Part shown: piece after piece, positions 42,123 through 58,695 of the stretch
How positions within the stretch are numbered: the first letter of the stretch is position 1
Layout of the letters: each line of letters begins with the position of its first letter
NCBI RefSeq assembly: GCF_054482595.1
Contig: NZ_CM137008.1
Length of the DNA: 64,000 nucleotides
Strand: one strand, 5' to 3'
Notes under the pieces: generated by a model
What the model saw: the letters and a program-made list of their open reading frames with translations, nothing else
Databases searched by the model: none
What the model was told of the DNA's origin: nothing
Position numbers and translations under genes: made by a program

Positions 42123-42129
42123 GGTTGAG

Positions 42130-43035
42130 TTACCAGCGGCCGGATGCGCCGCCACCTCCAGAAGAACCGCCCCCGCCGCTAAATCCGCCGCCACTTGAGC
42201 CTCCACCGGAAGAGGATGAAGAAGAACCTTTTCTTGAAGCTCTTTCTTTACTGAGTTTTTTGTATTTGGCGCGTAGCTTTTTATTGACGATAAGCCAAAA
42301 AATAACCAGTGGTACGATCGCAAAAGGCGTTAACATACCGCAGGCAACGATTAAATTGGTCCATGGTCCTGGCTCGGCAACATAGAGGAATACCATCCCG
42401 TAAATGGCGCCAGTGAGAGTGATCCAGGGTAAATTCGACGGATCGGTAAAAACAATAAAATATGAAAGTACCGCCAGCAATATAATTACAGCAAGCGATA
42501 ATGGAATAGGGGGATTGATACTGTAATAATCCCCCCTGTCTTCCGGTAATTCACCATTTAACAGAAGCGCGCCGATATTTTCGCTTGCCAGTGTTAATCC
42601 ACCCATCAGGTCATCACTTTTGAAGGCAGGGATCAATATATCCCTGATAATCTTCGCCGCTTGCAGGTCGGTAACCACCCCTTCCAGCCCGTAGCCAACC
42701 TCAATACGAACAGCATGATCCTCCCAGGCAACCAGAAGTAAAATACCATCGTTTCTCTGCTTATCTCCCAGTTTCCAGCTATCAAAAACCCTTGTAGCAT
42801 ATTGTTCAATGGAATCGTCTCCGGTGGACGGCACTACTAATACAGCGACCTGCGCCCGTGTTTTATGTGTAATATCCTGCAGTTGCTGTGTCAGTGATTG
42901 TTGTTCAGAAGTGCTTAACGTACCAGTAATATCGGTCACCTGTTGGCGCAGTTCCGGCACAGCAATTTGCTGGGCAAGCCCAGGAAGACACCACAAAGTG
43001 AATAGAATAAAGATTAAGCGCATTACGATCACCAA
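42130..43035 (-). CDS. TPM-domain membrane protein (YgcG-like), paralog 3 of a tandem triplet
   Basis: 301-aa ORF: signal peptide, TPM-type region (VAVLVVPSTGDDSIEQYATRVFDSWKLG...LLLVAWEDHAVRIEVGYGLEG), hydrophobic helices, Gly/Ser tail ending SGRW; start may be the internal Met at 43023. Confidence 0.75.
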   Translation of the reverse strand: MVIVMRLIFILFTLWCLPGLAQQIAVPELRQQVTDITGTLSTSEQQSLTQQLQDITHKTRAQVAVLVVPSTGDDSIEQYATRVFDSWKLGDKQRNDGILLLVAWEDHAVRIEVGYGLEGVVTDLQAAKIIRDILIPAFKSDDLMGGLTLASENIGALLLNGELPEDRGDYYSINPPIPLSLAVIILLAVLSYFIVFTDPSNLPWITLTGAIYGMVFLYVAEPGPWTNLIVACGMLTPFAIVPLVIFWLIVNKKLRAKYKKLSKERASRKGSSSSSSGGGSSGGGFSGGGGSSGGGGASGRW

Positions 43036-44177
43036 CGGCCGGATGAACCGCCGCCTCCTGAAGAACCGCCACCACCGCGGAAAGAATTTCTCGACGAAGA
43101 GCGAGAGTGAGCATTACGATTCCCCGTTTTCCTGTTGCTTTTTTCTCCTGATCCCAGCTTAAGATTGCCAGTAAATTTGGCCACAATGATCAGCAGAACG
43201 ATGCCAGCAATGGTTATTGGACCGATAAAATGATCAATTAACCCAATAATTGTTGAGATGAATGCAATATCTTTAATACTGGCGAACACCAGGCACCATC
43301 CCACAATAATTATCAGCATCACGACAAACAATGAATTTCGTCCTGATTCACGAACCTGCGGAGTCTTCTTTTGTTTTTTCACTTTAGCGTTTTTATTTTT
43401 TGGGGCCAGCATCATAGGAAATACGCGGCACAAATTAAAAACTACCGCGAGACGCTGCTTGCAGGTTGTTGCTAACAATAAACTAAAACAAACGATCGAC
43501 ACCCGCCGAATGATGACATCGTCCTGAAAGGAGAAAAACCAGACCATAGGGGTAATCATCGATATCATCCATATGCCACGCCGTGGGCGGCTGGCAAATC
43601 GCCAGAGGACAACGATGGCAACGATCATCAGCAGTGTCCAGGCAAGACATGGCAGCGAACGTTGCGGATTAGCAAACAGATGATTGGCTAAAGCATCCAA
43701 AGGGCTAAGGTTCGCTTTGATATGGGTAAACTGTGCGATGCTTTCAATTCCGCCCGTTAATCCAGCAAAGAGATTGTTTTTTTCGAATTCTGGCTGCATA
43801 TGGTAACGAACAATTTGCGCAGCTTGTTCCGGCGGCAACATCTGTTCCAGTCCATGTCCAATCTTCATTGACGCCAGCCCTTCCGGCCATACGACGAGAA
43901 TTAAGATACCTTCGCCATATCGCTTCTCTCCAACGGGTTTCCAGTGATATACCCCGTATCTCTGCGAGGCTGCAAGTTTAATGTTTTTGCCCCCTGTGGT
44001 CGGCGTAACCAACACGGCCACCTGGAAGTGGTTTTGCTGCTCGAGAGTCTGTAATTGTTGAGTTAAAGCAGTTTGTTCTTCTGTCGTTAATGTCCCGGTT
44101 AAGTCAGTCACTGAAGGCAATCGTTCAGCGAATACCTGAAAACCGCATAGCATCAGAAGTAAGAGAAAAATACGCAT
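43029..44177 (-). CDS. TPM-domain membrane protein, divergent paralog 2
   Basis: 382-aa ORF: signal peptide, TPM-type region (VAVLVTPTTGG...ILILVVWPEG...GHGLEQ), several hydrophobic helices, Lys-rich linker, Gly/Ser tail ending SGRW. Confidence 0.7.
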   Translation of the reverse strand: MRIFLLLLMLCGFQVFAERLPSVTDLTGTLTTEEQTALTQQLQTLEQQNHFQVAVLVTPTTGGKNIKLAASQRYGVYHWKPVGEKRYGEGILILVVWPEGLASMKIGHGLEQMLPPEQAAQIVRYHMQPEFEKNNLFAGLTGGIESIAQFTHIKANLSPLDALANHLFANPQRSLPCLAWTLLMIVAIVVLWRFASRPRRGIWMISMITPMVWFFSFQDDVIIRRVSIVCFSLLLATTCKQRLAVVFNLCRVFPMMLAPKNKNAKVKKQKKTPQVRESGRNSLFVVMLIIIVGWCLVFASIKDIAFISTIIGLIDHFIGPITIAGIVLLIIVAKFTGNLKLGSGEKSNRKTGNRNAHSRSSSRNSFRGGGGSSGGGGSSGRW

Positions 44178-44191
44178 ATCAATTCCTTTTG

Positions 44192-45115
44192 TTACCAGCG
44201 CCCGGAAGCGCCACCGCCACCAGATGAACCGCCACCACCGCTAAAATTGTCATTGTCGAATGAAGAGGATGACGATGATGAATAGTGGGAGAAAGAATTG
44301 CTTCTTGTATGGCGTGATGGCTGGTTGGCATCACGCATCAAATCCCGAACTTTTTTGCCGAAGGGGGTAAAAGCGATGGCGACAGCCAGGAACGGTGTGG
44401 CGAAGCAGAGTAATGTTGTGAGTACTCCCCAGCTTCCGCTGAAACCTGCTATAGGTAAAACAAAGGCCAGTACAATAGCTGCGAAGCAAATTACTCCCAG
44501 CGTTTTGATATATCCTCTGGCAGAAATAAACGTCAGTACTATCGCCCAGGCTAACAAGGCCCACCAACCGCTAAAAGGTAAAGGGTGATCGGCCGGTGCT
44601 ATCGTCGCTAAATTATTCCCTGCCAAACGGTTTTCAATATCGCTGAGTCCCTTTTGCAAGCCGCCAGCAAGATCACCATTTTTAAATGCCGGAATAATAC
44701 TGTTGCGAATAATTTGCCCGGACTGCGCATCCGTAATAATACCTTCCAGTCCGTAACCGATTTCAATACGCACGGTATGATCCTGCCAGGCGACTAACAG
44801 TAGAACGCCATCATCGCTGTCTTTATCACCCGGTTTCCAGCTATCGAATACCCGCGTTGCGTACTGCTCGATGGTTTCATCGCCTGTTGTATCAACCACT
44901 AACACGACCAACTGTGCGTGGTTTTTTTGCGTCAGGGCTTTAATCTGGTTGGTCAGGGTGTTTACTTCGCTGTTTGTTAATGTGCCGGTTAAGTCATTCA
45001 CATACTTGGGGGATTCAGGTACTGGAATTTGTGTGGCAAACACAGATGAACAGAAGAAAGCCATAAGGAAGATAAAATTTCGCACAGAACTTCCCCGCTT
45101 AATGAGCATTAGCAT
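44192..45115 (-). CDS. TPM-domain membrane protein, paralog 1
   Basis: 307-aa ORF very similar to 42130..43035 (LVVLVVDTTGDETIEQYATRVFDSWKPG...LLLVAWQDHTVRIEIGYGLEG), Gly/Ser tail ending SGRW; start codon ambiguous among the first Mets. Confidence 0.75.
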   Translation of the reverse strand: MLMLIKRGSSVRNFIFLMAFFCSSVFATQIPVPESPKYVNDLTGTLTNSEVNTLTNQIKALTQKNHAQLVVLVVDTTGDETIEQYATRVFDSWKPGDKDSDDGVLLLVAWQDHTVRIEIGYGLEGIITDAQSGQIIRNSIIPAFKNGDLAGGLQKGLSDIENRLAGNNLATIAPADHPLPFSGWWALLAWAIVLTFISARGYIKTLGVICFAAIVLAFVLPIAGFSGSWGVLTTLLCFATPFLAVAIAFTPFGKKVRDLMRDANQPSRHTRSNSFSHYSSSSSSSFDNDNFSGGGGSSGGGGASGRW

Positions 45116-45701
45116 TCTGGCTAAAATCTATTGTTGGGGCTTTACTTACTGCGGCGACATCATCCGGTAAATAATTTTTCTTTGGCGTGTAATCCATGAC
45201 CTTTGCGGTTAATACAGCGGGGAATTTGCGGATAGTGACATTATATTGTTCAATGGCTTTAATATATCTTCCTCGCGCAACGGCAATTCTATTTTCACTT
45301 CCTTCGAGCTGTACCATTAAGTTTTGATAGAGTTCCTGAGATTTTAACTCAGGGTAACGCTCACTAATTATCGTTAACTGACCGAGAGTGCGAGTCACCT
45401 GCGCTTGAGCCTGTTGCCAGGCTTGTAATTTTTGTTCATCTCCCGGAGTTTGCTGAAGATCGCTACTGGCGCGATTAGCCTGGCTACGAGCCAATGTTAC
45501 GGCTTCCAGTACATCTCGTTCATGGCTGGAATAACCTTTAATGCTGGCGACAAGATTAGGAATAAGATCGGCGCGACGTTGATATTGATTCAATACCTCA
45601 GACCAGGAGGCGTTAACCTGCTCATCATAGGTTTGAATATCGTTATATCCACAGCCTGATAAATTGAAAATAAATATAATTACGATGAATATTCTGAGCA
45701 T
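45099..45701 (-). CDS. LemA-family protein (predicted lipoprotein)
   Basis: 200-aa ORF; N-terminal hydrophobic segment with lipobox LSGC; LemA-like helical region; first gene of the operon. Confidence 0.75.
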   Translation of the reverse strand: MLRIFIVIIFIFNLSGCGYNDIQTYDEQVNASWSEVLNQYQRRADLIPNLVASIKGYSSHERDVLEAVTLARSQANRASSDLQQTPGDEQKLQAWQQAQAQVTRTLGQLTIISERYPELKSQELYQNLMVQLEGSENRIAVARGRYIKAIEQYNVTIRKFPAVLTAKVMDYTPKKNYLPDDVAAVSKAPTIDFSQNANAH

Positions 45702-46883: not shown

Positions 46884-47339
46884 GAGTTCCCCGCGCCAGC
46901 GGGGATAAACCGGCCTGGCGATTTCTCGTCAGGCCTTGCGGTGTGAGTTCCCCGCGCCAGCGGGGATAAACCGTCAGTAAAGCGGCGCCCACTGATATCG
47001 GATTAGAGTTCCCCGCGCCAGCGGGGATAAACCGAGGGGCAGGGAGTGACGCTGGAGCAGGCGATCGAGTTCCCCGCGCCAGCGGGGATAAACCGGGAAA
47101 TTAGGCAAATGTGAACACGGCGGCCCCGAGTTCCCCGCGCCAGCGGGGATAAACCGCCAGTATTTTGTCGTGGATTGCGGGATCACCAGAGTTCCCCGCG
47201 CCAGCGGGGATAAACCGTTGAGTTTGTTCGTAACAACGCGGGTCATCTGGAGTTCCCCGCGGCAGCGGGGATAAACCGGGTACAAAAGAGGCCCCATTCT
47301 GGCAGGGCTCAAGTTCCCCGCGCCAGTGGGGATAAACCA
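46884..47339 (+). CRISPR. Type I-E CRISPR array: 8 repeats of 29 nt, 7 spacers of 32 nt, no adjacent cas genes
   Basis: Repeat GAGTTCCCCGCGCCAGCGGGGATAAACCG at 46884, 46945, 47006, 47067, 47128, 47189, 47250 (one C-to-G variant) and degenerate terminal repeat aagttccccgcgccagtggggataaacca at 47311; exact 61-nt period. Confidence 0.95.
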
Positions 47340-47977: not shown

Positions 47978-49456
47978 TTACGCATTCGACCAGCTCTGGA
48001 TCGAATCCGCATTTCCCAATTCCCCATGCATCACTTCATACGATTTTTTCAGAATCACATCAGTATGTTTGGTTAGGTCTTTGAAAATGCCTTTATTCAT
48101 CGCGTCGTAGCGTTTGGCATTGCTCTCAATCGGTATAAAGATATCTTTCACGCGAACCATTTTATCGACAGCCGTTGCGTAATCCGGGTATAGCCCCAGA
48201 CCTACCGCTGTATTAATCGCTGCCCCCAGGCTTGCACAACCGTTAATGGCGTTACGTCGTGCCGGAAGGTTGAACACGTCGGCAAAAATCTGCATAAACA
48301 GATCGCTGTTCGAACCGCCGCCAGTAATGATTACATGCTTCGCAAAGTGATTCATTTCATTACACATATTGTCGTAATTGTTCTTCAGCGTCAGCGCCAC
48401 GCTTTCCAGTATCGAACGATATATCCATGCGTAATCCATGCTGGAATCAAAGCCGATCATAATCCCGCGTTTGTACGGTTCCCACGGATTGGTCAGCCAG
48501 TCCAGCACCGTCATCAGCCCATTACAGCCAGGTGGCACACTAGAGGCTTTCTTGTTGAGTAAATCTTCCGGTGAAAGATCCTGCGCCCTGGCATCCTGAA
48601 TTAACGACTCGCCTAACATGTCGCGCAGCCAGCTCACCGTCCACATGCCTTTGCGAATACCGTAACCTTCATACAGCAATGTTTGCGGAATAGAAGACAT
48701 AATCGGCCAGTACGCCACCGGATCTTTCGGCAAGGCTTTGCCGTTCATCATCAATGCGATGTAAGTGCCAAGAGAAATTACCGCAGTTTCATCATCCAGT
48801 AATCCGGCCCCCAGAGCTTCTACCGGTTTATCACTGGTGGTACAAACAACCGGCAGTCCTGCCGGGAAATGTGTCGCCAGTGCGGCTTGTGGTGTGATCT
48901 GTCCAAGGACGGTGCCAGGCATTTGCACATCAAACAGCATATGACGGGGGATATTAAACTTATCCATTACCGCAGCATCTTCACTCCATGCCCAGGTCTT
49001 ATAATCCACCGGCCACTGACCAAAATAGTTGGCGATATTGTCTTTAAACTCGCCGGTTAAGCGATGCGTCAGATAACCCGAAAAAGAGGTGACATAGGCC
49101 ACGTCAGGATTAGTGTGTTCGTAGGGACGCGTTACGCGTGCATCCTGCCAGCTAATCAATGGCGCAGCTGGCGTGCCATCGGCTTTCAATAACGCACGGC
49201 AGCAACGGATGGATCCCAGACCAATACCGACAATATCTTCTTTATTCCCGGCAAACTGACTCATCAAATCGTGACCGGCAAAACATAATGATGCCCATAA
49301 ATCGTCGTCAGGATGTTCTGCGGTATCGGCATCTGGCGTGTGCATCGGCTGCAATAAACCTTTGCCTTCGCAAACCACGTTACCTTCCAGATCGTACATC
49401 ACCACTTTTGTGCTCTGACTTCCGCCATCAATCCCTATGATGTATTTCTTCGACAT
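47978..49456 (-). CDS. ygcE: FGGY-family carbohydrate kinase
   Basis: 492-aa ORF MSKKYIIGIDGGSQSTKVVMYD; FGGY N- and C-terminal domains. Confidence 0.85.
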   Translation of the reverse strand: MSKKYIIGIDGGSQSTKVVMYDLEGNVVCEGKGLLQPMHTPDADTAEHPDDDLWASLCFAGHDLMSQFAGNKEDIVGIGLGSIRCCRALLKADGTPAAPLISWQDARVTRPYEHTNPDVAYVTSFSGYLTHRLTGEFKDNIANYFGQWPVDYKTWAWSEDAAVMDKFNIPRHMLFDVQMPGTVLGQITPQAALATHFPAGLPVVCTTSDKPVEALGAGLLDDETAVISLGTYIALMMNGKALPKDPVAYWPIMSSIPQTLLYEGYGIRKGMWTVSWLRDMLGESLIQDARAQDLSPEDLLNKKASSVPPGCNGLMTVLDWLTNPWEPYKRGIMIGFDSSMDYAWIYRSILESVALTLKNNYDNMCNEMNHFAKHVIITGGGSNSDLFMQIFADVFNLPARRNAINGCASLGAAINTAVGLGLYPDYATAVDKMVRVKDIFIPIESNAKRYDAMNKGIFKDLTKHTDVILKKSYEVMHGELGNADSIQSWSNA

Positions 49457-49482
49457 GATTTTTCTCCTGTAATTTTCCTGGC

Positions 49483-50760
49483 TTACTTGCTGCTAGCCAT
49501 TGCGGGGGCGCTATCAGCAGTACGAATTTTTTGGAACAGCAAAAAGGTAAAGACAATCACCATGGCAAGCGCCGCCATGCCCATCAGCCACATATTGCGG
49601 TAGGCTTCTGCTGCGGGCAGGGTGTCTTGCCAGTGGCCGATAATTGGGTAAACGAAGACATCCGGCAGGAATCCAATCACCGAGCAAATACCTACCGTGG
49701 TGCCCATAATGTAAGACGGTGTTCTCGCTTCGCCAGGGCAGGCCCAGTACAGCCCGCGTGAGGCGTAACAGGTGAATCCCAGCAGTAAAATCAGGCCAAT
49801 CCCCATCGCGACCGATTGCGGGTTAGAGTTCGTGACGAGCAGGGCAGTTAACGCCAGCAGGCCGAGTACGGAAAGGATTTGGATCACGCGGGTAGGGGAT
49901 TTCACTTTGCTGTAGGTGGTGATTATGCCGCCAAGTGGGCCGCACAGCGCGCGGAAGATTTTGTTGATCACAATCCCCATGTAGCTCGCCGCCACCAGCG
50001 ACATGCCGTACATTTCGGTCAGATAGTTGGTGGAGTAACTCAGAATGGCGTAGATGGTGAAGACACCAAAAATCACCATGCTGCAATACCAGGTGGTACT
50101 GATACGCAAAACGGCCAGGATATCGCTAAGCTGGAATGACTGTTTTTCTTCGTTATTGGCACTGCGCAGGTTGTTGTTATCGCTAACAAAAAACCAGCAC
50201 AGAAGCCCCAACAAGATGTAAACCACACTGTAGATGATAATGACCGTTTTCAGGCTGGCGCTGTCATCCGGTGCAAAGCGAGAAAAGACCCACATGGTAA
50301 ACACCGCCAGCGACATTACACCGACGCCGCGCAGCCCTTCCATCCAGCCCATAATTTTCCCTTGCTCGCTATGATCGCCAAGCAACGATGCGGCTTTAAT
50401 CGACACCGACCACAGCATTAAAATCGTCGTTATCGCAAAGGCGACCTGAATACAGAGCATTACCCACAGCGGTGGATACGTTGCCATTAACAGACCCAGT
50501 AATCCGGTAATGATCATCGCGGAAGTAATCATTTTGCGATGTGAGAATTTATCAGCAATAACGCCGCTGGGGGCATAAAGAATAATAGCTGCAATACCAA
50601 AGGTACTCATTATTAAACCTATCTCGGTATTGCTGAATCCCATAAATTTCGCCATGGGAATTTGATAAATATAACGTAAATAAGCCAGGTCGAAACTAAC
50701 GCCGCCGCTAAAACTAATTATCGCGAGGGTTATCCAACGGCGATATGAGTTGTGTTGCAT
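49483..50760 (-). CDS. yqcE: MFS transporter
   Basis: 425-aa polytopic ORF upstream of and co-oriented with ygcE. Confidence 0.85.
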   Translation of the reverse strand: MQHNSYRRWITLAIISFSGGVSFDLAYLRYIYQIPMAKFMGFSNTEIGLIMSTFGIAAIILYAPSGVIADKFSHRKMITSAMIITGLLGLLMATYPPLWVMLCIQVAFAITTILMLWSVSIKAASLLGDHSEQGKIMGWMEGLRGVGVMSLAVFTMWVFSRFAPDDSASLKTVIIIYSVVYILLGLLCWFFVSDNNNLRSANNEEKQSFQLSDILAVLRISTTWYCSMVIFGVFTIYAILSYSTNYLTEMYGMSLVAASYMGIVINKIFRALCGPLGGIITTYSKVKSPTRVIQILSVLGLLALTALLVTNSNPQSVAMGIGLILLLGFTCYASRGLYWACPGEARTPSYIMGTTVGICSVIGFLPDVFVYPIIGHWQDTLPAAEAYRNMWLMGMAALAMVIVFTFLLFQKIRTADSAPAMASSK

Positions 50761-50882
50761 ATCGTATTCCCATTTGTAATAGACAAAAAAAAGAGAAAAG
50801 TAAGCCGCCCTTTCAGGTGGATTACTTTTCTCAGGTCTCTAGTAATTGAAATAATAAATAACATGGAAAGCAGAGGTGTTGT

Positions 50883-50954
50883 GTGAGAGTAATCACGCTT
50901 CTGCTTTTTAAAACTATTTGATAATGCGAATATCACACTGTGATTACGATCACA
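50883..50954. promoter_or_regulatory. Two CRP-like boxes in the yqcE/ygcW divergent region
   Basis: tgtgaGAGTAAtcacg (50883..50898) and perfect TGTGAttacgaTCACA (50939..50954). Confidence 0.55.
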
Positions 50955-51008
50955 TTAGCAGTTATGCCCTTATGCTAAAAATTATCTCCAGTTACCAGAG
51001 ATAATGAG

Positions 51009-51054
51009 AAAGGTAACTTCCCTCTCGCGGGGGAAGTTACCTTTCTTTTTTTTT
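51009..51054 (+). terminator. Strong intrinsic-terminator-like hairpin in the ygcW leader (possible attenuator)
   Basis: aaaggtaacttccc-tctcgcgg-gggaagttaccttt (14-bp perfect stem) followed by cTTTTTTTTT; ends 25 nt before the ygcW start codon. Confidence 0.6.
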
Positions 51055-51078
51055 GCCTTACGGAAATTGGAGCTAACT

Positions 51079-51864
51079 ATGTCAATCGAATCTCTCAATG
51101 CGTTCTCAATGGATTTTTTCTCCCTGAAAGGTAAAACCGCAATTGTTACCGGCGGGAATAGCGGTTTAGGCCAGGCATTTGCCATGGCGTTGGCCAAAGC
51201 AGGCGCAAATGTCTTTATTCCTAGCTTCGTCAAAGATAACGGCGAAACAAAGGAAATGATTGAAAAACAGGGTGTTGAAGTTGATTTTATGCAGGTGGAT
51301 ATCACCGCAGAAGGCGCGCCGCAGAAGATTATCGCTGCTTGCTGTGAGCGTTTCGGAACAGTTGATATTCTGGTTAACAATGCCGGTATTTGTAAGCTGA
51401 ATAAGGTGCTGGACTTTGGTCGAGCCGACTGGGACCCGATGATTGATGTGAACCTGACCGCCGCATTCGAGTTAAGCTACGAAGCGGCAAAAATTATGAT
51501 CCCGCAGAAAAGCGGTAAAATTATTAATATCTGTTCATTGTTCTCTTACTTAGGTGGACAATGGTCACCTGCATATTCTGCCACTAAACATGCTCTTGCC
51601 GGATTCACCAAAGCTTATTGTGATGAACTAGGTCAATATAATATTCAGGTAAATGGTATCGCCCCTGGCTATTATGCAACAGATATTACGCTGGCGACAC
51701 GCAGTAATCCAGAAACCAATCAGCGCGTTCTTGATCATATTCCGGCAAACCGTTGGGGCGATACTCAGGATTTAATGGGCGCAGCCGTGTTTCTCGCAAG
51801 TCAGGCATCGAATTATGTCAACGGGCATTTATTAGTGGTCGATGGCGGTTATTTAGTGCGCTAA
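51079..51864 (+). CDS. ygcW: Short-chain dehydrogenase/reductase (KduD/FabG-like)
   Basis: ORF 51004..51864; start chosen at MSIESLNAFSM (261 aa) after RBS ggag; Rossmann motif TGGNSGLGQA; YxxxK catalytic motif (YSATK). Confidence 0.85.
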   Translation: MSIESLNAFSMDFFSLKGKTAIVTGGNSGLGQAFAMALAKAGANVFIPSFVKDNGETKEMIEKQGVEVDFMQVDITAEGAPQKIIAACCERFGTVDILVNNAGICKLNKVLDFGRADWDPMIDVNLTAAFELSYEAAKIMIPQKSGKIINICSLFSYLGGQWSPAYSATKHALAGFTKAYCDELGQYNIQVNGIAPGYYATDITLATRSNPETNQRVLDHIPANRWGDTQDLMGAAVFLASQASNYVNGHLLVVDGGYLVR

Positions 51865-51933
51865 CCCATAACGGTGGTTTCTGTTTTCTCTTATTAATGA
51901 TTATTCCATTTTTATTATCAGGAAGGAATTACT

Positions 51934-53388
51934 ATGTCTTTATCTCGCGCAGCGATTGTCGACCAGCTAAAGGAAATTGTTGGTGCAGATCGCGTAATTA
52001 CCGATGAAACAGTATTAAAGAAGAACAGTATTGACCGTTTTCGTAAATTTCCGGATATTCATGGCATTTATACTTTGCCGATTCCGGCAGCGGTCGTAAA
52101 ACTCGGTTCCACAGAACAAGTCTCCCGTGTGCTGAATTTTATGAATGCGCACAAAATTAACGGTGTGCCGCGTACCGGTGCTTCCGCCACCGAAGGTGGG
52201 CTGGAAACTGTTGTAGAAAACTCGGTGGTGCTCGACGGCTCCGCCATGAATCAAATCATTAATATTGATATTGAGAATATGCAGGCGACGGCGCAATGTG
52301 GCGTTCCCCTGGAAGTGCTGGAAAACGCGTTGCGTGAAAAAGGTTACACCACGGGGCATTCTCCGCAGTCAAAGCCGCTGGCGCAGATGGGCGGCCTGGT
52401 AGCAACCCGCAGTATCGGGCAGTTCTCCACACTCTACGGCGCAATCGAAGATATGGTCGTTGGTCTGGAAGCAGTATTGGCTGATGGCACCGTCACACGC
52501 ATTAAAAACGTGCCACGCCGCGCGGCTGGCCCGGACATTCGTCACATCATCATCGGCAACGAAGGTGCATTGTGCTATATCACTGAAGTAACAGTGAAAA
52601 TCTTTAAATTCACCCCGAAAAACAACCTCTTCTACGGCTATATCCTGGAAGACATGAAAACCGGCTTCAACATCCTGCGTGAAATCATGGTGGAAGGGTA
52701 TCGTCCGTCGATCGCTCGTTTGTATGACGCTGAAGATGGCACCCAACACTTCACCCATTTTGCCGACGGAAAATGTGTGCTGATCTTTATGGCTGAAGGT
52801 AACCCTCGCATTGCGAAGGCGACGGGCGAAGGGATTGCGGAAATCGTTGCCCGCTACCCGCAGTGCCAGCGCGTGGACAGCAAACTGATCGAAACCTGGT
52901 TTAACAACCTGAACTGGGGACCGGATAAAGTGGCTGCCGAACGTGTGCAAATCCTCAAAACCGGCAACATGGGCTTTACCACTGAAGTGTCCGGCTGCTG
53001 GAGCTGCATCCACGAAATCTACGAAAGCGTTATTAACCGTATTCGTATCGAGTTCCCGCACGCCGACGACATCACTATGCTGGGTGGTCACTCCTCTCAT
53101 AGCTATCAGAACGGCACCAACATGTACTTCGTCTACGACTACAACGTTGTCAACTGTAAGCCGGAAGAGGAAATCGACAAGTACCACAATCCGCTCAACA
53201 AAATCATCTGCGAAGAAACCATTCGCCTCGGCGGTTCGATGGTGCACCACCACGGCATTGGTAAACATCGCGTTCACTGGAGCAAGCTGGAACACGGCAG
53301 CGCGTGGGCGTTGCTGGAAGGGCTGAAAAAGCAATTCGATCCTAACGGCATTATGAATACGGGTACTATCTATCCGATTGAAAAATAA
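51934..53388 (+). CDS. ygcU: FAD-linked oxidoreductase (FAD-binding PCMH type)
   Basis: 484-aa ORF MSLSRAAIVDQLKEIVGADRVITDE. Confidence 0.85.
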   Translation: MSLSRAAIVDQLKEIVGADRVITDETVLKKNSIDRFRKFPDIHGIYTLPIPAAVVKLGSTEQVSRVLNFMNAHKINGVPRTGASATEGGLETVVENSVVLDGSAMNQIINIDIENMQATAQCGVPLEVLENALREKGYTTGHSPQSKPLAQMGGLVATRSIGQFSTLYGAIEDMVVGLEAVLADGTVTRIKNVPRRAAGPDIRHIIIGNEGALCYITEVTVKIFKFTPKNNLFYGYILEDMKTGFNILREIMVEGYRPSIARLYDAEDGTQHFTHFADGKCVLIFMAEGNPRIAKATGEGIAEIVARYPQCQRVDSKLIETWFNNLNWGPDKVAAERVQILKTGNMGFTTEVSGCWSCIHEIYESVINRIRIEFPHADDITMLGGHSSHSYQNGTNMYFVYDYNVVNCKPEEEIDKYHNPLNKIICEETIRLGGSMVHHHGIGKHRVHWSKLEHGSAWALLEGLKKQFDPNGIMNTGTIYPIEK

Positions 53389-53481
53389 TGTGTCAGGCAG
53401 CGTTCCGCGATGATGGGGCGTTGCCTTTTCGGCTTCTCAGGCGAGAAGCCGTTCTTATTACCGGACAATGAAGGGGTAAAG

Positions 53482-54819
53482 ATGAACACTTCACCGGTGC
53501 GAATGGATGATTTACCGCTTAACCGTTTTCACTGTCGAATTGCTGCGCTCACTTTCGGCGCACACCTGACCGACGGTTATGTTCTCGGCGTCATTGGTTA
53601 CGCCATTATTCAACTTACGCCCGCCATGCAACTGACGCCGTTTATGGCGGGAATGATCGGCGGCTCGGCGCTCCTTGGTTTGTTTCTTGGCAGCCTGGTT
53701 CTTGGGTGGATCTCCGACCATATTGGTCGGCAAAAAATCTTCACCTTCAGCTTTTTGCTGATTACGCTCGCTTCGTTCCTGCAATTTTTTGCCACCACGC
53801 CAGAGCATCTTATTGGACTGCGCATTTTGATCGGCATTGGTCTGGGAGGCGATTACTCAGTAGGTCACACCTTGCTGGCTGAATTTTCCCCGCGCCGCCA
53901 TCGCGGTGTTTTGCTGGGCGCATTCAGCGTGGTGTGGACCGTAGGCTATGTGTTAGCAAGTATTGCCGGACATCACTTTATTAGCGAAAGCCCGGAGGCC
54001 TGGCGCTGGCTGCTGGCATCGGCAGCTATGCCCGCGTTGTTGATTACGTTATTACGCTGGGGAACGCCAGAATCGCCACGCTGGCTACTGCGCCAGGGGC
54101 GTTTTGCAGAAGCTCACGCTATCGTGCATCGCTATTTTGGTCCCCATGTTTTACTGGGCGATGAAGTGGCAACGGCGACCCATAAACACATCAAAACCTT
54201 GTTCTCTTCGCGCTACTGGCGGCGCACGGCGTTTAACAGCGTCTTCTTTGTCTGCCTCGTAATCCCATGGTTTGTGATTTATACCTGGCTGCCAACTATC
54301 GCCCAGACTATTGGTCTAGAAGATGCGCTGACTGCCAGCCTGATGCTTAATGCGTTGTTAATTGTGGGCGCGCTGCTGGGATTAGTTCTGACGCACCTGC
54401 TGGCACATCGCAAATTTTTGCTGGGAAGTTTTTTGCTGCTGGCGGCAACGCTGGTAGTAGTGGCCTGTTTGCCTTCCGGCAGTTCATTAACGCTGCTGCT
54501 TTTTGTTCTCTTCAGCACCACCATTTCGGCAGTCAGTAATCTGGTGGGCATTTTGCCTGCGGAAAGTTTTCCTACTGACATTCGCTCGCTGGGCGTCGGT
54601 TTTGCCACCGCCATGAGCCGGTTGGGCGCGGCGGTAAGTACTGGCCTGCTGCCGTGGGTGCTGGCGCAGTGGGGAATGCAAGTTACCTTATTGATCCTGG
54701 CGGCAGTGTTGTTGGTTGGTTTTGTTGTGACCTGGCTATGGGCACCAGAAACCAAAGCACTCCCGCTGGTGGCGGCGGGAAATGTAGGAGGTGCGAATGA
54801 ACATTCTGTTAGCGTTTAA
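53482..54819 (+). CDS. ygcS: MFS sugar transporter
   Basis: ORF 53410..54819; start chosen at MNTSPVRMDD (445 aa); polytopic. Confidence 0.8.
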   Translation: MNTSPVRMDDLPLNRFHCRIAALTFGAHLTDGYVLGVIGYAIIQLTPAMQLTPFMAGMIGGSALLGLFLGSLVLGWISDHIGRQKIFTFSFLLITLASFLQFFATTPEHLIGLRILIGIGLGGDYSVGHTLLAEFSPRRHRGVLLGAFSVVWTVGYVLASIAGHHFISESPEAWRWLLASAAMPALLITLLRWGTPESPRWLLRQGRFAEAHAIVHRYFGPHVLLGDEVATATHKHIKTLFSSRYWRRTAFNSVFFVCLVIPWFVIYTWLPTIAQTIGLEDALTASLMLNALLIVGALLGLVLTHLLAHRKFLLGSFLLLAATLVVVACLPSGSSLTLLLFVLFSTTISAVSNLVGILPAESFPTDIRSLGVGFATAMSRLGAAVSTGLLPWVLAQWGMQVTLLILAAVLLVGFVVTWLWAPETKALPLVAAGNVGGANEHSVSV

Positions 54820-55576
54820 AGCCGAACCGGATGCCGGAATGCTGGCGGAAAAAGAGTGGCAGGCGGCGGCTCAGGGTAATAGCGGACCGGATGTTTCGCT
54901 ACTGCGAAGTTTACTCGGTGCTGATGAACAGGCTGCCGCCGCGCTGCTGTTGGCGCAGAGAAAAAACGGTACGCCGATGTCTTTAACCGCGTTGAGCATG
55001 GGGGATGAACGGGCGTTACACTGGCTGCGCTATCTCATGGCTCTTGGGTTTGAGGAAGCTGTATTGCTGGAGACGGCGGCAGATCTGCGCTTTGCGTCGG
55101 AATTTGTCGCTCGCCATATTGCCGAATGGCAGCGTCAGAATCCGCTGGATCTGATAATTACCGGCTGCCAAAGCAGCGAAGGGCAGAATGGGCAAACGCC
55201 ATTTTTGCTGGCGGAAACGCTGGGCTGGCCCTGCTTCACCCAGGTGGAGCGTTTCACTCTCGACGCGCTGTTTATCACCCTCGAACAGCGTACTGAACAT
55301 GGGCTGCGCTGTTGCCGGGTTCGCTTGCCTGCGGTGATTGCCGTGCGCCAGTGCGGTGAAGTGGCCTTGCCAGTACCGGGAATGCGCCAGCGAATGGCTG
55401 CGGGGAAAGCGGAAATTATCCGTAAAACTGTTGCTGCCGAATTGCCAGCGATGCAGTGTCTGCAACTGGCAAGAGCAGAGCAACGACGCGGAGCGACGCT
55501 GATTGATGGGCAAACGGTAGCAGAAAAAGCGCAAAAGCTATGGCAGGACTATTTACGCCAAAGGATGCAGCCATGA
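54797..55576 (+). CDS. ygcR: Electron-transfer-flavoprotein beta-subunit-like protein
   Basis: ORF 54791..55576; start chosen at MNILLAFKAEPDAG (259 aa); overlaps ygcS 3' end. Confidence 0.8.
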   Translation: MNILLAFKAEPDAGMLAEKEWQAAAQGNSGPDVSLLRSLLGADEQAAAALLLAQRKNGTPMSLTALSMGDERALHWLRYLMALGFEEAVLLETAADLRFASEFVARHIAEWQRQNPLDLIITGCQSSEGQNGQTPFLLAETLGWPCFTQVERFTLDALFITLEQRTEHGLRCCRVRLPAVIAVRQCGEVALPVPGMRQRMAAGKAEIIRKTVAAELPAMQCLQLARAEQRRGATLIDGQTVAEKAQKLWQDYLRQRMQP

Positions 55577-56433
55577 ATATCGCAATTGTGACAATAAATC
55601 AGGAGAATGCCGCAATAGCAAGCTGGCTGGCGGCGCAGGATTTCAGCGGTTGTACCCTGGCGCACTGGCAGATTGAACCTCAGCCCGTAGTGGCGGAACA
55701 GGTGCTGGATGCGCTGGTGGAACAGTGGCAGCGAACGCCTGCGAACGTTGTTCTCTTTCCGCCGGGAACGTTTGGCGATGAACTGTCGACCCGGCTGGCC
55801 TGGCGTTTACATGGTGCAAGCATCTGCCAGGTGACTTCGTTAGAGATTCCAACCGTAAGCGTGCGCAAATCCCACTGGGGAAATGCGCTAACGGCGACGC
55901 TGCAAACAGAAAAACGCCCGCTATGCCTTTCCCTGGCGCGTCAGGCGGGAGCAGCGAAAAACGCCACGTTGCCCTCTGGAATGCAACAACTGAACATTGT
56001 CCCGGGTGCGCTTCCGGACTGGCTGGTTAGCATAGAGAACCTGAAAAATGTTACCCGCGACCCATTAGCTGAGGCCAGACGGGTGTTGGTGGTGGGGCAG
56101 GGCGGAGAGGCAGATAACCAGGAAATCGCTATGCTGGCAGAAAAGCTGGGAGCCGAAGTGGGCTACAGTCGGGCGCGAGTGATGAACGGTGGCGTTGATG
56201 CTGAAAAAGTGATTGGTATTTCCGGACATCTGCTGGCACCTGAGGTGTGTATTGTTGTTGGCGCTTCTGGCGCAGCAGCGTTAATGGCGGGCGTACGCAA
56301 TAGCAAGTTTGTGGTGGCGATTAATCATGACGCCAGCGCAGCGGTATTTTCACAGGCAGATGTTGGCGTGGTTGATGACTGGAAAGTGGTGCTGGAGGCA
56401 CTGGTGACAAACATTGACGCAGATTGCCAATAA
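55573..56433 (+). CDS. ygcQ: Electron-transfer-flavoprotein alpha-subunit-like protein
   Basis: ORF 55540..56433; start chosen at MNIAIVTINQ (286 aa); C-terminal FAD-binding region. Confidence 0.8.
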   Translation: MNIAIVTINQENAAIASWLAAQDFSGCTLAHWQIEPQPVVAEQVLDALVEQWQRTPANVVLFPPGTFGDELSTRLAWRLHGASICQVTSLEIPTVSVRKSHWGNALTATLQTEKRPLCLSLARQAGAAKNATLPSGMQQLNIVPGALPDWLVSIENLKNVTRDPLAEARRVLVVGQGGEADNQEIAMLAEKLGAEVGYSRARVMNGGVDAEKVIGISGHLLAPEVCIVVGASGAAALMAGVRNSKFVVAINHDASAAVFSQADVGVVDDWKVVLEALVTNIDADCQ

Positions 56434-56437
56434 CGTG

Positions 56438-56548
56438 TTGCCGGATGATCCTGCCTACGGTTCTGGACTGGGGACCTGTAGGCCTGATAAGACGCGTTAA
56501 GCGTCGCATCAGGCGCTGAATGTCGGATGTGGCGTGCGGCCTACAAAT
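56438..56548. repeat. REP/BIME cluster between convergent ygcQ and ygcP
   Basis: gccggatgatcctgcctacgg, tgtaggcctgataagacgcgttaagcgtcgcatcaggcgc, gtcggatgtggcgtgcggcctaca. Confidence 0.7.
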
Positions 56549-56580
56549 CAAACCAAATTCAATTGGTTACGATTATCCCG

Positions 56581-57156
56581 TCAAAGCAATTTTTTCGCTA
56601 ACGTCCAGACTCCGGTATTCGTGGTGGAAAGCGCCACGACACCCGCGTTAATCGCATTACGCGCATCTTCTTCATCGCATACCAGCCCGCCAGCAATCAG
56701 CGGTTGGCGGATTTTTTCCGTCACCCAGCCCAGCACTTTGGGCATGCAGCCTGGCAGGATCTCAATACAATCCGGATTCGATTGCGCAACTTGCTTATCA
56801 ATGTTGTGAAACGAAATCGAATCAACAATAAACAGGCGATGAATACAGAAAAAACCTTCCGCTCTTGCCGCTTTCAACATTGAGGCTTTGGTACTGATAA
56901 TGCCGTCCGCCTCGGTCACCAGTTTCAAAAACTGAATCACGACTTCTTTATTTGACGCGCCTTCCAGCAAATCAACATGAATAAAAGCATATTTCCCGGC
57001 GTTCTTAATCTTTTTAACGATATTACTGATGGTGCAGATATTGCCGTACAACACGGAAATAAACTGGCATTCAGAGTCGATTGCCAGTTGTAGGCTGGCA
57101 TTATCTTTAACGGCAGCAATCACCGGATTCTGGCGGAGCAGGTGTAAGAGGGGCAT
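56581..57156 (-). CDS. ygcP: GlpP-like (glycerol-3-phosphate-responsive antiterminator family) protein
   Basis: 191-aa ORF MPLLHLLRQNPVIAAVKDN; last gene of the ygcN-ygcO-ygcP minus-strand unit. Confidence 0.8.
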   Translation of the reverse strand: MPLLHLLRQNPVIAAVKDNASLQLAIDSECQFISVLYGNICTISNIVKKIKNAGKYAFIHVDLLEGASNKEVVIQFLKLVTEADGIISTKASMLKAARAEGFFCIHRLFIVDSISFHNIDKQVAQSNPDCIEILPGCMPKVLGWVTEKIRQPLIAGGLVCDEEDARNAINAGVVALSTTNTGVWTLAKKLL

Positions 57157-57172
57157 AAATTATCCTTATTAT

Positions 57173-57433
57173 TTATCCAAAACGGTAGGTGATGCCGAAT
57201 CCGGAAGGCGGATAGCGCCACTGTTGTAGTGTTGATTCGTCGCACAGCAAACGGCAGGTGCCACACTCCAGGCAACTGCGATAGTCAATACGTAAGTCAC
57301 CTTCCGGTGTGAGCGAAAAAAGACCTGCCGGACAGGCGTTAATCAACCGTTCTGCCGTCTGGCGCTCAACGGAGTCAGCCGGAACAATATGTGGCGCATC
57401 AGCAGCGCGCCAGAGATTACGGGCTACAGACAT
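57173..57433 (-). CDS. ygcO: Ferredoxin-like protein (FixX-like)
   Basis: ORF 57173..57469; start chosen at MSVARNLW (86 aa); Cys cluster CLECGTCRLLC. Confidence 0.75.
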   Translation of the reverse strand: MSVARNLWRAADAPHIVPADSVERQTAERLINACPAGLFSLTPEGDLRIDYRSCLECGTCRLLCDESTLQQWRYPPSGFGITYRFG

Positions 57434-58695
57434 CGCAGACTCCTGATAACGTCGCCCGCCAGATGCCACAGGCCGTGACGACGTAAATGACGCCAGAATA
57501 ACTGGCGCAGCGGTGGAACAGGTTTATCACCCTGATCCCATAAATCGCGGGAAATATCCTGCATTAACGCAGGCCACGCCCAATACCAGCCAGGGCGTTG
57601 CAAAAGCGCCGGAACATGCTGATAACGCTGTAGAACATCCCACAGCAGGCTGCGCTCGACGTTGTGATGATAAAGCGGAAACAGATTTTGCGGCTCGCAG
57701 TGCTGGCAGGCGCTTATCAGCGTTTGTGCCGCCGCCTGTGCGCCAGTCAGCGCCATATCCATGCCGCGCACGGAGATTCCGGTATTGACGCAACTGCGTA
57801 ACGCATCGCCCACCAGCAGCCAGCCGTTACCGGCGTATTGCACTGGCATACTGTGCAAGCCACCTTCTGGCACCAGATGCGCACCATACTCCAGTGATTC
57901 CGTGTTTTTGATAAGCGGGCGCACTGCCGGATACGTTTTAAAGCGAGCCAGCAGCTCGCTTGCCGGAACACGACTTTGCGTAAGGGAAGAGAGCGGGCAA
58001 ACAATCCCTAACGAGAGCGTTTGTTGATTAGTATAAAGAAATGCGCCGCCGGGAAAGTCATCACAGATTCCGCCGCTGAACAGCAACGCTGCGCCTTCGT
58101 TATTCTCCAGATGAAAACGTTCTTCAATAGCGGATGTTTCCAGCGACAGCACTTCTTTGATCCCCAACGCCATCGCTTCGCCAGCAGGACGAGTCACTAA
58201 TCCGTGACGTTCAGCCAGGACGCTGTTGGCACCTTCTGCCAGCACCACATAACGGGCGCGGAGAATATCGTCACCACAAATGACACCACACACTCTGCCG
58301 TTTTCTTCATACAGTGCATCCACCGTCGCTCCGGGGATACATTCGACACCTTCTTTTTCGGCTTCGGCAACCAGCCACGGATCGAACCGTGCACGTAATA
58401 CACTCCAGGATTCACCGCCGGGCTGTAAGCTGGAAAACGTCGTTGCGCCATCCGGCGTTAACAGGGAAAGGCTTTCGTGAGTGATGCGTCGTTCAAGAGG
58501 CGCGGTCAGATGAAACTGAGGGAGGAGTTCCGCGAGTGCATGGGTATATAACCGCCCGCCGGAAAGATTTTTGCTGCCGGGGATTTCAGCGCGTTCCAGT
58601 AACAAAACGGATAAACCCGCTCGCGCGCAGCGTAACGCGCAAGCGGTGCCTGCAATACCGGCACCAATAATAATAATGTCGCAGTCGTCTTCCAT
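57424..58695 (-). CDS. ygcN: FAD-dependent oxidoreductase (FixC / ETF-QO-like)
   Basis: ORF 57424..58725; start chosen at MEDDCDIIIIGAGIAG (423 aa); dinucleotide-binding motif. Confidence 0.8.
   Translation of the reverse strand: MEDDCDIIIIGAGIAGTACALRCARAGLSVLLLERAEIPGSKNLSGGRLYTHALAELLPQFHLTAPLERRITHESLSLLTPDGATTFSSLQPGGESWSVLRARFDPWLVAEAEKEGVECIPGATVDALYEENGRVCGVICGDDILRARYVVLAEGANSVLAERHGLVTRPAGEAMALGIKEVLSLETSAIEERFHLENNEGAALLFSGGICDDFPGGAFLYTNQQTLSLGIVCPLSSLTQSRVPASELLARFKTYPAVRPLIKNTESLEYGAHLVPEGGLHSMPVQYAGNGWLLVGDALRSCVNTGISVRGMDMALTGAQAAAQTLISACQHCEPQNLFPLYHHNVERSLLWDVLQRYQHVPALLQRPGWYWAWPALMQDISRDLWDQGDKPVPPLRQLFWRHLRRHGLWHLAGDVIRSLRCL

Follow-up and report, generated by a model that had tools for sequence, protein, structure and literature searches.

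The ygc gene cluster of Escherichia coli, a conserved orphan locus with candidate GlpP-type leader elements and an AGPS-like flavoenzyme

The ygc gene cluster of Escherichia coli was examined in a window of 64,000 nucleotides (the whole stretch of DNA that was analysed; NCBI RefSeq assembly GCF_054482595.1, contig NZ_CM137008.1), of which it occupies positions 47978-58695. It consists of ten intact open reading frames (ORFs), whose limits and strands are exactly those of a first-pass annotation made from the sequence alone; the gene identities and orientations proposed there were borne out by the ORFs, the RefSeq names and family searches. The genes are listed below (aa, amino acids; MFS, major facilitator superfamily; SDR, short-chain dehydrogenase/reductase; AGPS, alkylglycerone-phosphate synthase; ETF, electron-transfer flavoprotein).

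47978-49456, minus strand: ygcE, FGGY-family kinase, 492 aa, second gene of the yqcE-ygcE operon (ORF and RefSeq)
49483-50760, minus strand: yqcE, MFS transporter, 425 aa, weakly similar to anion-type (galactonate/phosphoglycerate) carriers
51079-51864, plus strand: ygcW, KduD/gluconate-5-dehydrogenase-like SDR, 261 aa
51934-53388, plus strand: ygcU, predicted AGPS-like flavoprotein, 484 aa
53482-54819, plus strand: ygcS, MFS transporter, with the K-12 start
54797-55576, plus strand: ygcR, ETF beta-like, 259 aa, accessory
55573-56433, plus strand: ygcQ, ETF alpha-like, 286 aa, accessory
56581-57156, minus strand: ygcP, GlpP-family antiterminator, 191 aa
57173-57433, minus strand: ygcO, FixX-like ferredoxin, 86 aa, accessory
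57424-58695, minus strand: ygcN, FixC-like flavoprotein, 423 aa, accessory, first gene of ygcN-ygcO-ygcP

The cluster is flanked by queE and a CRISPR array on one side and by queD-cysJIH on the other, and its arrangement in strain K-12 is identical. The 13-kb stretch carrying it was 100% identical to several E. coli chromosomes, and at least 80% of this 13-kb query was present in 5031 of 5426 complete E. coli genomes (about 93%). Identity between the window and K-12 was uniform (97.3-98.8% per gene); hypervariability of the ETF and FixCX genes within E. coli was considered and rejected, low identities being found between species only. Family searches recovered an FGGY kinase, two MFS transporters, a KduD-like SDR, a FAD_binding_4/FAD-oxidase_C protein, ETF beta and alpha, and FixC-like and FixX-like proteins. 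None of the proteins of the cluster reached an NCBIfam equivalog cut-off, and therefore none is an orthologue of a characterised enzyme. Naming the substrate via NCBIfam equivalogs or PDB neighbours was likewise rejected, as the cut-offs were not reached and PDB matches gave the family only. Searches of full texts for each of the ten gene names yielded no paper that assigned the cluster biochemically or genetically (one match to 'ygcO' was a typing error for ycgO), and searches on GlpP homologues, FGGY with ETF, MttB with FGGY and BCCT, and bacterial AGPS-like enzymes found no functional assignment either. A 2026 paper still names YgcU a 'FAD-binding oxidoreductase' and tried it as a candidate D-serine enzyme, with no effect. 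The earlier statement that no substrate had been established thus still stands, and the ygc cluster is confirmed as real, conserved and still an orphan in function. Its catabolic character, as first proposed, fits the presence of CRP sites, transporters and a kinase.

The genes ygcN and ygcO overlap by 10 nt, and ygcO and ygcP are 16 nt apart. On the plus strand, the order ygcW-ygcU-ygcS-ygcR-ygcQ was found as first described, but its reading as a single unit may hold only in part. Directly 3' of the ygcU stop codon lie two tandem stem-loops on the plus strand (53395-53426, then UUUUC; 53430-53451, then UUCUUAUU; -36 kcal/mol, z = -3.6), so that ygcW-ygcU may be separable from ygcS-ygcR-ygcQ. 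A hairpin occupies this position in most Enterobacterales, with differing sequences. The stem-loops may represent a partial terminator at the boundary between the core genes ygcW-ygcU and ygcS-ygcR-ygcQ. The ygcS start in the RefSeq annotation of the matching strain (53410) falls within the hairpin loop, and the K-12 start at 53482 is preceded by a good Shine-Dalgarno sequence (AAGGGG); the latter is most likely the start of ygcS.

The yqcE and ygcW genes diverge from a region of 318 bp that contains two paralogous modules, each with a CRP site, an extended -10 element and a leader, as follows.

50939-50954, plus strand: perfect CRP site, TGTGATTACGATCACA, its centre 41.5 bp ahead of the predicted transcription start of ygcW
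50973-50981, plus strand: predicted extended -10 element of ygcW, TGcTAAAAA, with a predicted transcription start at about 50988
50985-51057, plus strand: ygcW leader, with arm AGTTACC (50990-50996), loop AGAGATAATGAGAAA and arm' GGTAACT (51013-51019)
51006-51047, plus strand: ygcW terminator, stem of 19 bp and U-run (to about 51054), some 25 nt upstream of the ygcW ATG
50882-50897, minus strand: second, CRP-like site, CGTGATTACTCTCACA, its centre 41.5 bp ahead of the predicted transcription start of yqcE
50863-50855, minus strand: predicted extended -10 element of yqcE, TGtTATTTA, with a predicted transcription start at about 50848
50783-50852, minus strand: yqcE leader, with arm AATTACT (about 50847-50841), loop AGAGACCTGAGAAA and arm' AGTAAT (50826-50821)
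50832-50793, minus strand: stem of the yqcE terminator, followed by U8 (50792-50785), about 25 nt before the yqcE ATG

The two halves of this region align over about 140 nt, the second CRP-like site included, and therefore constitute a duplicated module. A CRP site in the ygcW/yqcE region was computationally predicted in 2007. Since then, binding of CRP at TGTGATTACGATCACA has been found by chromatin immunoprecipitation sequencing in enterotoxigenic E. coli (PMC4287617) and by in vitro Footprint-seq, with a Kd of about 1.7 nM (PMC12871828). The first-pass view that regulation had not been established is therefore outdated, the more so as RNA targets of the GlpP-like protein can be identified, as described below. 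The predicted transcripts begin 0-2 nt ahead of the 5' arm of each leader. Consistent with the predicted promoters, the TGnTA motif is conserved in other Enterobacteriaceae, and Listeria, Sporomusa and locus L074 have clear promoters, with the arm 7-9 nt after the -10 element.

In both leaders, the terminator 5' arm starts with a segment that can pair with a short stretch further upstream, and between the two lies a purine-rich loop of the type AGAGA-N3-4-GAGAAA. The full-length leader folds as a terminator (ygcW terminator, -30.6 kcal/mol, z = -7.8; yqcE leader fold, -20.5 kcal/mol, z = -5.0), and the 5' part folded alone gives a weak antiterminator hairpin (-6.7 and -1.4 kcal/mol for ygcW and yqcE, respectively). 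A scan for YgcP in one genome collection yielded 64 loci, and 61 distinct leaders were aligned; this alignment, and the covariance model built from it, were seeded with E. coli-type leaders. Across the 61 leaders, 91.6% of the cells of the antiterminator helix were paired, with compensatory changes at three pairs (for example, G-C in 46 and A-U in 11 leaders, or U-A in 39 and C-G in 14); when the helix was slid, 17-54% were paired, and the observed value was matched by none of 500 shuffles. Similarly, the terminator helix was paired for 86.4%, with eight pairs changed on both sides. Column 40 was paired in the antiterminator in 57 of the 61 leaders, and in the terminator in only 21. These counts support the predicted leader structure but fall short of proof, because the leaders are related sequences.

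The covariance model scored the ygcW and yqcE leaders at 82.2 and 71.6 bits, respectively, and gave exactly two strong matches per Enterobacterales locus; in nearly all of these loci the element is found upstream of both the ygcW and the yqcE orthologue. It revealed no further copies in the window, and neither sequence nor covariance-model searches found a copy upstream of ygcN or ygcP, which leaves the ygcN-ygcO-ygcP unit without the element. Leader sites were present at two places per genome in 5063 of the 5426 E. coli genomes and were never annotated. Searching by sequence similarity, no extra YgcP targets were found elsewhere in the E. coli chromosome (median of two places per genome). No Rfam family matched either E. 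coli leader at E <= 1, and none matched the Firmicute leaders at gathering score.

The regulator to which these leaders may respond is encoded by ygcP. Residues 12-184 of YgcP match positions 1-173 of the 173 positions of the PF04309 family (G3P_antiterm; E = 1.6e-62), its solved relatives are 3KTS and 1VKF, and it is the only GlpP-family protein seen in the window. In Bacillus subtilis, the 5'-untranslated region (5'-UTR) of glpD is portable and confers GlpP- and glycerol-dependent control behind other promoters (PMC9604022); it reads GGTCC-TGAGA-TGAG-GAGAGACC (PMC9604022, Table S4). The glpD terminator 5' arm begins at the second GAGA, which is the same architecture as that of the ygc leaders. 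This architecture was also found in Listeria, Bacillus, Thalassobacillus, Lachnoclostridium, Faecalibacterium, Sporomusa, Photobacterium and metagenomic Firmicutes, where, according to weaker model matches and direct reading, the arms differ yet stay complementary and the GAGA...GAG loop is retained. The arms concerned are given here.

Listeria and Bacillus DNRA2: GTTGCT / AGCGAC
Thalassobacillus: GTTACT / AGTAAC
Lachnoclostridium: TTGC / GCAA
Faecalibacterium: TGTTTGTTTC / GAAACGGACA
Sporomusa: AATTACT / AGTAATT
Photobacterium: E. coli-like

In two Clostridia loci (L064 and L065), a canonical glpP gene and a gene for a glycerol-3-phosphate (G3P) oxidase-like protein flank the element. Furthermore, among twelve additional loci, the element occurred in all six with a PF04309 protein and in none of the six that contained the enzyme genes without PF04309. 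The ygc system thus shares with the B. subtilis GlpP system the regulator family (PF04309), the leader layout (promoter, short 5' arm, GAGA...GAG(A) loop, an arm' that is the start of the terminator, and a U-run), the presence of several leader copies per regulon, and a layered catabolite control, exerted by CcpA in Bacillus and by CRP in the case of E. coli ygc. It differs from it in its proteobacterial host, in the arms (GGTC/GACC in B. subtilis glp versus GTTACY/RGTAAC in ygc), in the genes controlled (FGGY kinase, SDR and AGPS-like flavoenzyme instead of glpK and glpD) and in its ligand, which is probably not G3P itself. On these grounds, both ygc leaders are very probably targets of YgcP, so that expression would need cAMP-CRP, YgcP and an inducer. 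The yqcE-ygcE and ygcW-ygcU(-ygcS-ygcR-ygcQ) units would each start from a class-II-type cAMP-CRP-dependent promoter, with a leader that by default would form a strong intrinsic terminator directly ahead of the first gene. YgcP, together with a phosphorylated pathway intermediate, would bind the GAGA-rich loop and stabilise the weak antiterminator hairpin of 6-7 bp; this hairpin would sequester the terminator 5' arm and allow RNA polymerase to read through, an action modelled on that of B. subtilis GlpP with G3P at the glpD, glpFK and glpTQ leaders. No proteobacterial GlpP-type system was described in the literature searched, and ygc regulation looks to be the first GlpP-type attenuation in Proteobacteria that could be found.

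Two other explanations bear on this part of the evidence. The cluster could be cryptic or decaying in E. coli, the hairpins being ordinary terminators or repeats unconnected to YgcP; the lack of a phenotype or substrate in the literature, the 363-395 complete E. coli genomes without the cluster and the fast evolution of the ETF and FixCX genes would agree with this. It is nevertheless highly improbable, as all ORFs are intact, the core genes are under strong constraint (ratios of nonsynonymous to synonymous substitution rates, dN/dS, of 0.01-0.04), about 93% of the genomes retain the cluster, and both operons have their hairpin in the interval from promoter to start codon; these hairpins are conserved, with covariation between orders and between phyla, and their occurrence coincides perfectly with that of a GlpP homologue. 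Alternatively, YgcP could sense G3P itself, and the cluster could be an auxiliary route for glycerol, G3P or glycerophosphodiesters that is induced when G3P builds up. Indeed, YgcP is a full-length GlpP-family member that keeps segments conserved in Listeria GlpP (IAGGL and, C-terminally, ST..N..W), and the ygc leaders are of the same type as the glpD leaders. However, GlpR already controls the E. coli glp genes, YgcP is only about 46-49% identical to canonical GlpP proteins, and ygc-type GlpP homologues consistently pair with the triad of SDR, AGPS-like protein and FGGY kinase and not with glpK or glpD, whereas canonical ones adjoin G3P oxidase genes, which makes this explanation improbable.

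The conserved core of the cluster comprises ygcP, ygcW, ygcU and ygcE, usually with a yqcE-like MFS gene. It is kept from Escherichia to Serratia, Pantoea and Erwinia, and also occurs in Listeria sensu lato, Bacillus, Thalassobacillus, Sporomusa and Photobacterium. For YgcW, 77-79% identity was found between E. coli and Listeria. When computed against close Escherichia and Citrobacter, dN/dS was 0.03-0.04 for ygcE, about 0.02 for both ygcW and ygcU, and 0.01-0.04 for ygcP. The adjacency of MFS and FGGY genes was also encountered in Photobacterium, Bacillus DNRA2 and locus L076. With respect to the kinase, the best NCBIfam matches of YgcE indicated family membership only (XylB, 144.6 bits versus a cut-off of 380; LsrK, 139 versus 528), and the equivalog cut-offs of the characterised FGGY kinases compared (XylB, LsrK, GlpK, GntK, AraB, FucK and RhaB) were not reached; its closest solved structures were LsrK and then glycerol kinases. 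The YgcE proteins of Yersiniaceae, Erwiniaceae and Budviciaceae (L033-L055) are 43-50% identical to that of E. coli, and the Firmicute kinases (L056-L063) 54-59%. This inversion is not seen in YgcW and YgcU, so that the kinase seems to have a separate history of replacement or transfer. The SDR YgcW came close to the KduD cut-offs but stayed below them (350.7 bits versus 369 for NF005390; 277.7 versus 338.9 for TIGR01832). Dehydrogenases of the KduD/gluconate-5-dehydrogenase type oxidise the penultimate hydroxyl of a terminal diol.

The third core enzyme, YgcU, had been annotated as a FAD-linked oxidase. The homologues of this protein in Sporomusa, Desulfobacula, Alkalihalobacillus and Photobacterium are 70-75% identical to it. 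A profile made from 17 family members at 62-84% identity was searched against solved structures and matched guinea-pig AGPS best (199 bits), followed by Dictyostelium AGPS (182 bits), glycolate oxidase (134 bits) and LctD (97 bits). AGPS and YgcU share the FAD-binding PCMH domain and, in addition, the active-site Arg, Tyr and HHH loop. In guinea-pig numbering, R419 of AGPS (located via the R-to-H variant 4BC7) aligns with YgcU R262, Y578 (located via the Y-to-F variant 4BCA) with Y398, and H615-H617 of the HHH loop with H438-H440, and these YgcU residues are invariant in the 17 family members. A mere similarity of FAD domains was rejected as the basis of the match, since the family profile aligns the C-terminal catalytic residues too. 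The G/x-E-H-G-[IV]-G motif of the GlcD/LctD/D-LDH type is not present in the C-terminal domain of YgcU, which reads V-H-H-H-G-I-G versus G-E-H-G-V-G in glycolate oxidase 9QGZ. AGPS is a redox-neutral enzyme in which oxidised FAD serves as the electrophile: with Tyr as the base, flavin N5 and dihydroxyacetone phosphate (DHAP) form an adduct, and the C1 substituent leaves before the nucleophile adds (PMC3509576). Arg352 and Tyr508 of the Dictyostelium enzyme are important, as was found by mutagenesis (PMC3509576); with a chain offset of +3, they correspond to the aligned guinea-pig residues R419 and Y578. YgcU is thus predicted to be an AGPS-like flavoenzyme and not one of the GlcD/oxidase type. 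It differs from AGPS in being encoded in a CRP-controlled catabolic operon with transporters and in its proposed nucleophile, which would be water instead of a fatty alcohol.

The remaining genes, ygcR, ygcQ, ygcN and ygcO, underlie the self-contained oxidative pathway that the first-pass annotation proposed. This ETF-centred proposal is supported only in part, and a central place of ETF and FixCX in the system is not supported. Several Serratia species, Pantoea, Erwinia, Izhakiella, Listeria and some other lineages keep ygcP, ygcW, ygcU and ygcE but lack these four genes, whose dN/dS values (0.08-0.34; 0.12-0.34 for ygcR and 0.17-0.23 for ygcQ) are 5-10 times those of the core, although the genes are still constrained. 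YgcQ of E. coli is only 61% identical to that of Citrobacter, versus 97% for YgcP and YgcW. YgcR reached 45 bits, far under the cut-offs, and YgcN 374 bits against a cut-off of 466. All four proteins also fell under the equivalog cut-offs of FixA, FixB, FixC and FixX (YgcR, 30 versus 219; YgcQ, 61 versus 549; YgcN, 358 versus 610; YgcO, 82 versus 166); YgcRQ and YgcNO are therefore paralogues, not orthologues, of FixAB and FixCX. In anaerobes, a second flavoenzyme of 467-542 aa (FADox2) follows EtfB-EtfA, with an xEHG motif in all eight FADox2 proteins and without a counterpart in the E. coli cluster. The order EtfB-EtfA-FADox2, with FADox2 a GlcD-like dehydrogenase, is that of the LctB-LctC-LctD complex, so that the ETF may primarily serve FADox2. 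YgcRQ and YgcNO would thus form an accessory electron-transfer module with an uncertain partner, outside the core of the pathway.

These data also bear on a rather unlikely, albeit serious, alternative, namely that YgcU is a GlpD-like or LctD-like dehydrogenase of a phosphorylated polyol or 2-hydroxy acid, its electrons passing via YgcRQ and YgcNO to quinone, with YgcW performing a further redox step and YgcE the phosphorylation, as in the EryA/EryB or GlpK/GlpD pathways. In Bacillus DNRA2, Sporomusa, Photobacterium, Desulfobacula and several metagenome-assembled genomes, the genes for ETF beta and alpha come immediately after ygcU, and YgcR and YgcQ of E. coli match the ETF pair encoded next to YgcU; the FAD_binding_4/FAD-oxidase_C superfamily of YgcU includes the ETF-dependent LctD, and the ETF and FixCX genes are under purifying selection (dN/dS below 0.35). 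However, the HHH/Tyr/Arg signature of YgcU is that of AGPS and not the xEHG of GlcD, LctD and D-LDH, the ETF may serve FADox2, which E. coli lacks, many lineages keep the triad without ETF, and the constraint on the four accessory genes is relaxed 5-10-fold. Moreover, as this scheme has two oxidations and a kinase but neither an aldolase nor an isomerase, it leaves the entry of the polyol into central metabolism unexplained. In the Brucella erythritol pathway (EryA kinase, EryB FAD dehydrogenase) and in the GlpK/GlpD pathway, the kinase acts first and oxidation of the neighbouring carbon then gives a keto-phosphate. The proposed ygc route resembles both in starting with a kinase, using a phosphorylated intermediate as signal and then oxidising it. 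It differs in that the C2 oxidation is assigned to an SDR and that the flavoenzyme belongs to another family, with a non-dehydrogenase signature; in addition, E. coli has no isomerases of the EryC/H/I type that belong to the Brucella pathway. The enzyme core looks like a variant of kinase/dehydrogenase catabolism built around an AGPS-like flavoenzyme.

With respect to the substrate, a 'sugar or polyol', as first suggested, is too generic, since the contexts in other phyla indicate a glycerol-type moiety linked to a trimethylammonium-type group. In a sample of 13 lineages outside the Enterobacterales, genes in the same operon or strand block as the triad included BCCT, OpuA-type or MttB genes in 11 cases, distributed as follows.

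BCCT transporter with the triad: Bacillus DNRA2, Thalassobacillus, Sporomusa, Photobacterium, L072, Alkalihalobacillus and L076
OpuA/OpuAC-type ABC importer with the triad: L074/L075
MttB-family methyltransferases with the triad, once with corrinoid and pterin-binding partners: Desulfobacula, L070 and L071

Listeria and L077 were the exceptions. The BCCT gene of Sporomusa has its own leader copy and the OpuA-type operon of L074 comes first behind a leader; these importers therefore belong to the same regulon as the triad. What is known of BCCT, OpuAC and non-pyrrolysine MttB proteins connects all three families with trimethylammonium or dimethylsulfonium compounds, and a link of trimethylammonium-type BCCT transporters to the triad in other taxa recalls the E. 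coli cai/fix system. A literature search found no paper linking BCCT, OpuAC or MttB to the triad. Single neighbouring genes hint at choline or methylamine chemistry, namely a weakly matching domain of zinc phospholipase C (phosphatidylcholine-type) downstream of the BCCT gene (L076, 17459-18109), an APH/choline-kinase-like gene after ygcU (L073, 10836-11732), and formaldehyde-handling genes (GFA, Fae) upstream of the BCCT gene (L072, 2888-6390). Furthermore, a second operon of L071 (349-5317, minus strand), divergent from the ygc-type operon, encodes a GlpD-like (DAO/DAO_C) dehydrogenase, an FGGY kinase and a 561-aa AGPS-like protein with an HHHG motif; this parallel triad seems to represent an analogous pathway in which another dehydrogenase acts on C2.

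Taken as a whole, an antiterminator-controlled catabolism of a glycerol derivative is the best explanation, with confidence and doubt evenly divided. As to the chemistry of the triad, it is tentatively proposed, with somewhat more doubt than confidence, that the substrate has a glycerol-like end, X-CH2-CHOH-CH2OH, and ends as DHAP. YgcE would phosphorylate the primary hydroxyl to a substituted glycerol-3-phosphate, the likely inducer, which YgcP would sense; YgcW would oxidise C2 to a 1-substituted dihydroxyacetone phosphate, the order of YgcE and YgcW being possible either way; and YgcU would expel X by covalent flavin-N5 chemistry of the AGPS type and add water, releasing DHAP into glycolysis. 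In the lineages with BCCT, OpuA or MttB genes, X could be phosphocholine, with glycerophosphocholine as substrate, or trimethylammonium itself, as in a dihydroxypropyl-trimethylammonium compound. Ether-lipid synthesis has counterparts of all three enzymes (alkylglycerol kinase, alkyl-DHAP reductase, which is an SDR, and AGPS), and the proposed route would be these three steps in reverse. The model accounts for the small number of enzymes, since three would do with neither aldolase nor isomerase, for the homology of the sensor to a G3P sensor, and for the variation of the transporters by lineage while the enzymes stay 60-80% identical.

Several points weigh against this explanation. First, no growth phenotype of the cluster was reported in the literature searched, and the binding of RNA by YgcP, the read-through and the transcription starts are sequence predictions. 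The location of each CRP site at -41.5, in a class-II-type geometry, would likewise follow from predicted starts and is a reading of the DNA sequence alone, and the covariation comes from related sequences and from a model seeded with E. coli-type leaders. Secondly, KduD-like SDRs normally act on unphosphorylated sugar acids. Thirdly, the chemistry proposed for YgcU is an analogy with AGPS, and we know of no AGPS-like hydrolase. YgcU (484 aa, versus 658 in guinea pig and 584 in Dictyostelium) lacks the N-terminal part of about 135-190 residues that includes the lipid-gating domain of AGPS, the alignment starting at AGPS residue 192 (guinea pig) or 137 (Dictyostelium) and YgcU residues 36-50; YgcU would therefore be AGPS-like in its catalytic core only, and is not an AGPS. 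Fourthly, the model holds no role for ETF, the genes of which directly follow ygcU in many genomes, so that YgcU could be a true dehydrogenase. Lastly, the E. coli cluster contains no BCCT, OpuA or MttB gene, and the trimethylammonium link may therefore not apply to E. coli; in addition, a single dedicated MttB orthogroup tied to the cluster was rejected, as the linked MttB proteins share only 34-52% identity.

Some features of the surrounding DNA and of other loci were recorded as well. Between the convergent ygcQ and ygcP genes lies a REP/BIME-like palindrome (window 56481-56554), with weak, sub-threshold matches to Rfam naRNA4 on both strands. The CRISPR array (window about 46884-47339; 5885-6340 of L001) is located between queE and ygcE, with cas3 beyond cysH, and this stretch is only about 90.6% identical between the window and K-12. 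The interval between queE and eno forms a variable segment adjoining the cluster, as it encodes LemA and three TPM-domain proteins in the window (about 42100-45701; 1131-4702 of L001) and only yqcG and ygcG in K-12 (13558-14584 of L066). In Citrobacter youngae and Klebsiella spallanzanii, an ERIC-like repeat (containing CCCGATGAGCTTACTGTAGTAAGTGATTCGGGTGAG and GAAGTATGAAGGGTATA) is inserted between the terminator of the yqcE leader and the start codon (L010, about 16322-16481; L011, about 12668-12827), and in Enterobacter sp. 10-1 (L013) the spacer between ygcU and ygcS is taken up by a similar repeat. In Serratia microhaemolytica (L045), the ygcP homologue stands by itself, the other ygc genes being absent from 7 kb on either side, and the YgcU homologue of this species (P0130) is encoded on another contig; the covariance model reported no leader match in this locus. 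Finally, 'Chryseobacterium sp. 18061' (L025) contains a typical Enterobacteriaceae cysJ-queD-ygc locus with 87-93% identity to the E. coli proteins, and this assembly is probably contaminated or mislabelled.

The ygc cluster represents ten y-genes of E. coli K-12 that have been without a function for decades in the best-studied bacterium, and its two leaders offer a specific read-out for finding the ygc substrate directly. If YgcP works as proposed, GlpP-type antitermination would reach Proteobacteria and a pathway other than that of glycerol, and an RNA element would be defined that both Rfam and genome annotation lack. If the AGPS-like reading of YgcU is true, it would constitute a new catabolic use of non-redox flavin chemistry. 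The ygc core might even be a widespread, unrecognised pathway, shared by E. coli with Listeria, Sporomusa, Photobacterium and sulfate reducers, that salvages the glycerol moiety of 1-substituted glycerols as DHAP by a water-accepting covalent-flavin chemistry so far known only from ether-lipid synthesis, with trimethylammonium-bearing glycerol derivatives such as glycerophosphocholine among its substrates, although this wider view is speculative and rather doubtful. The recurrent link with BCCT, OpuA and MttB suggests that a route for an abundant compound derived from osmolytes or lipids has been overlooked, and such a route may be relevant to the turnover of choline and trimethylamine in the gut; if the salvage reading is true, it would connect the cluster to choline and trimethylamine in gut and marine bacteria.

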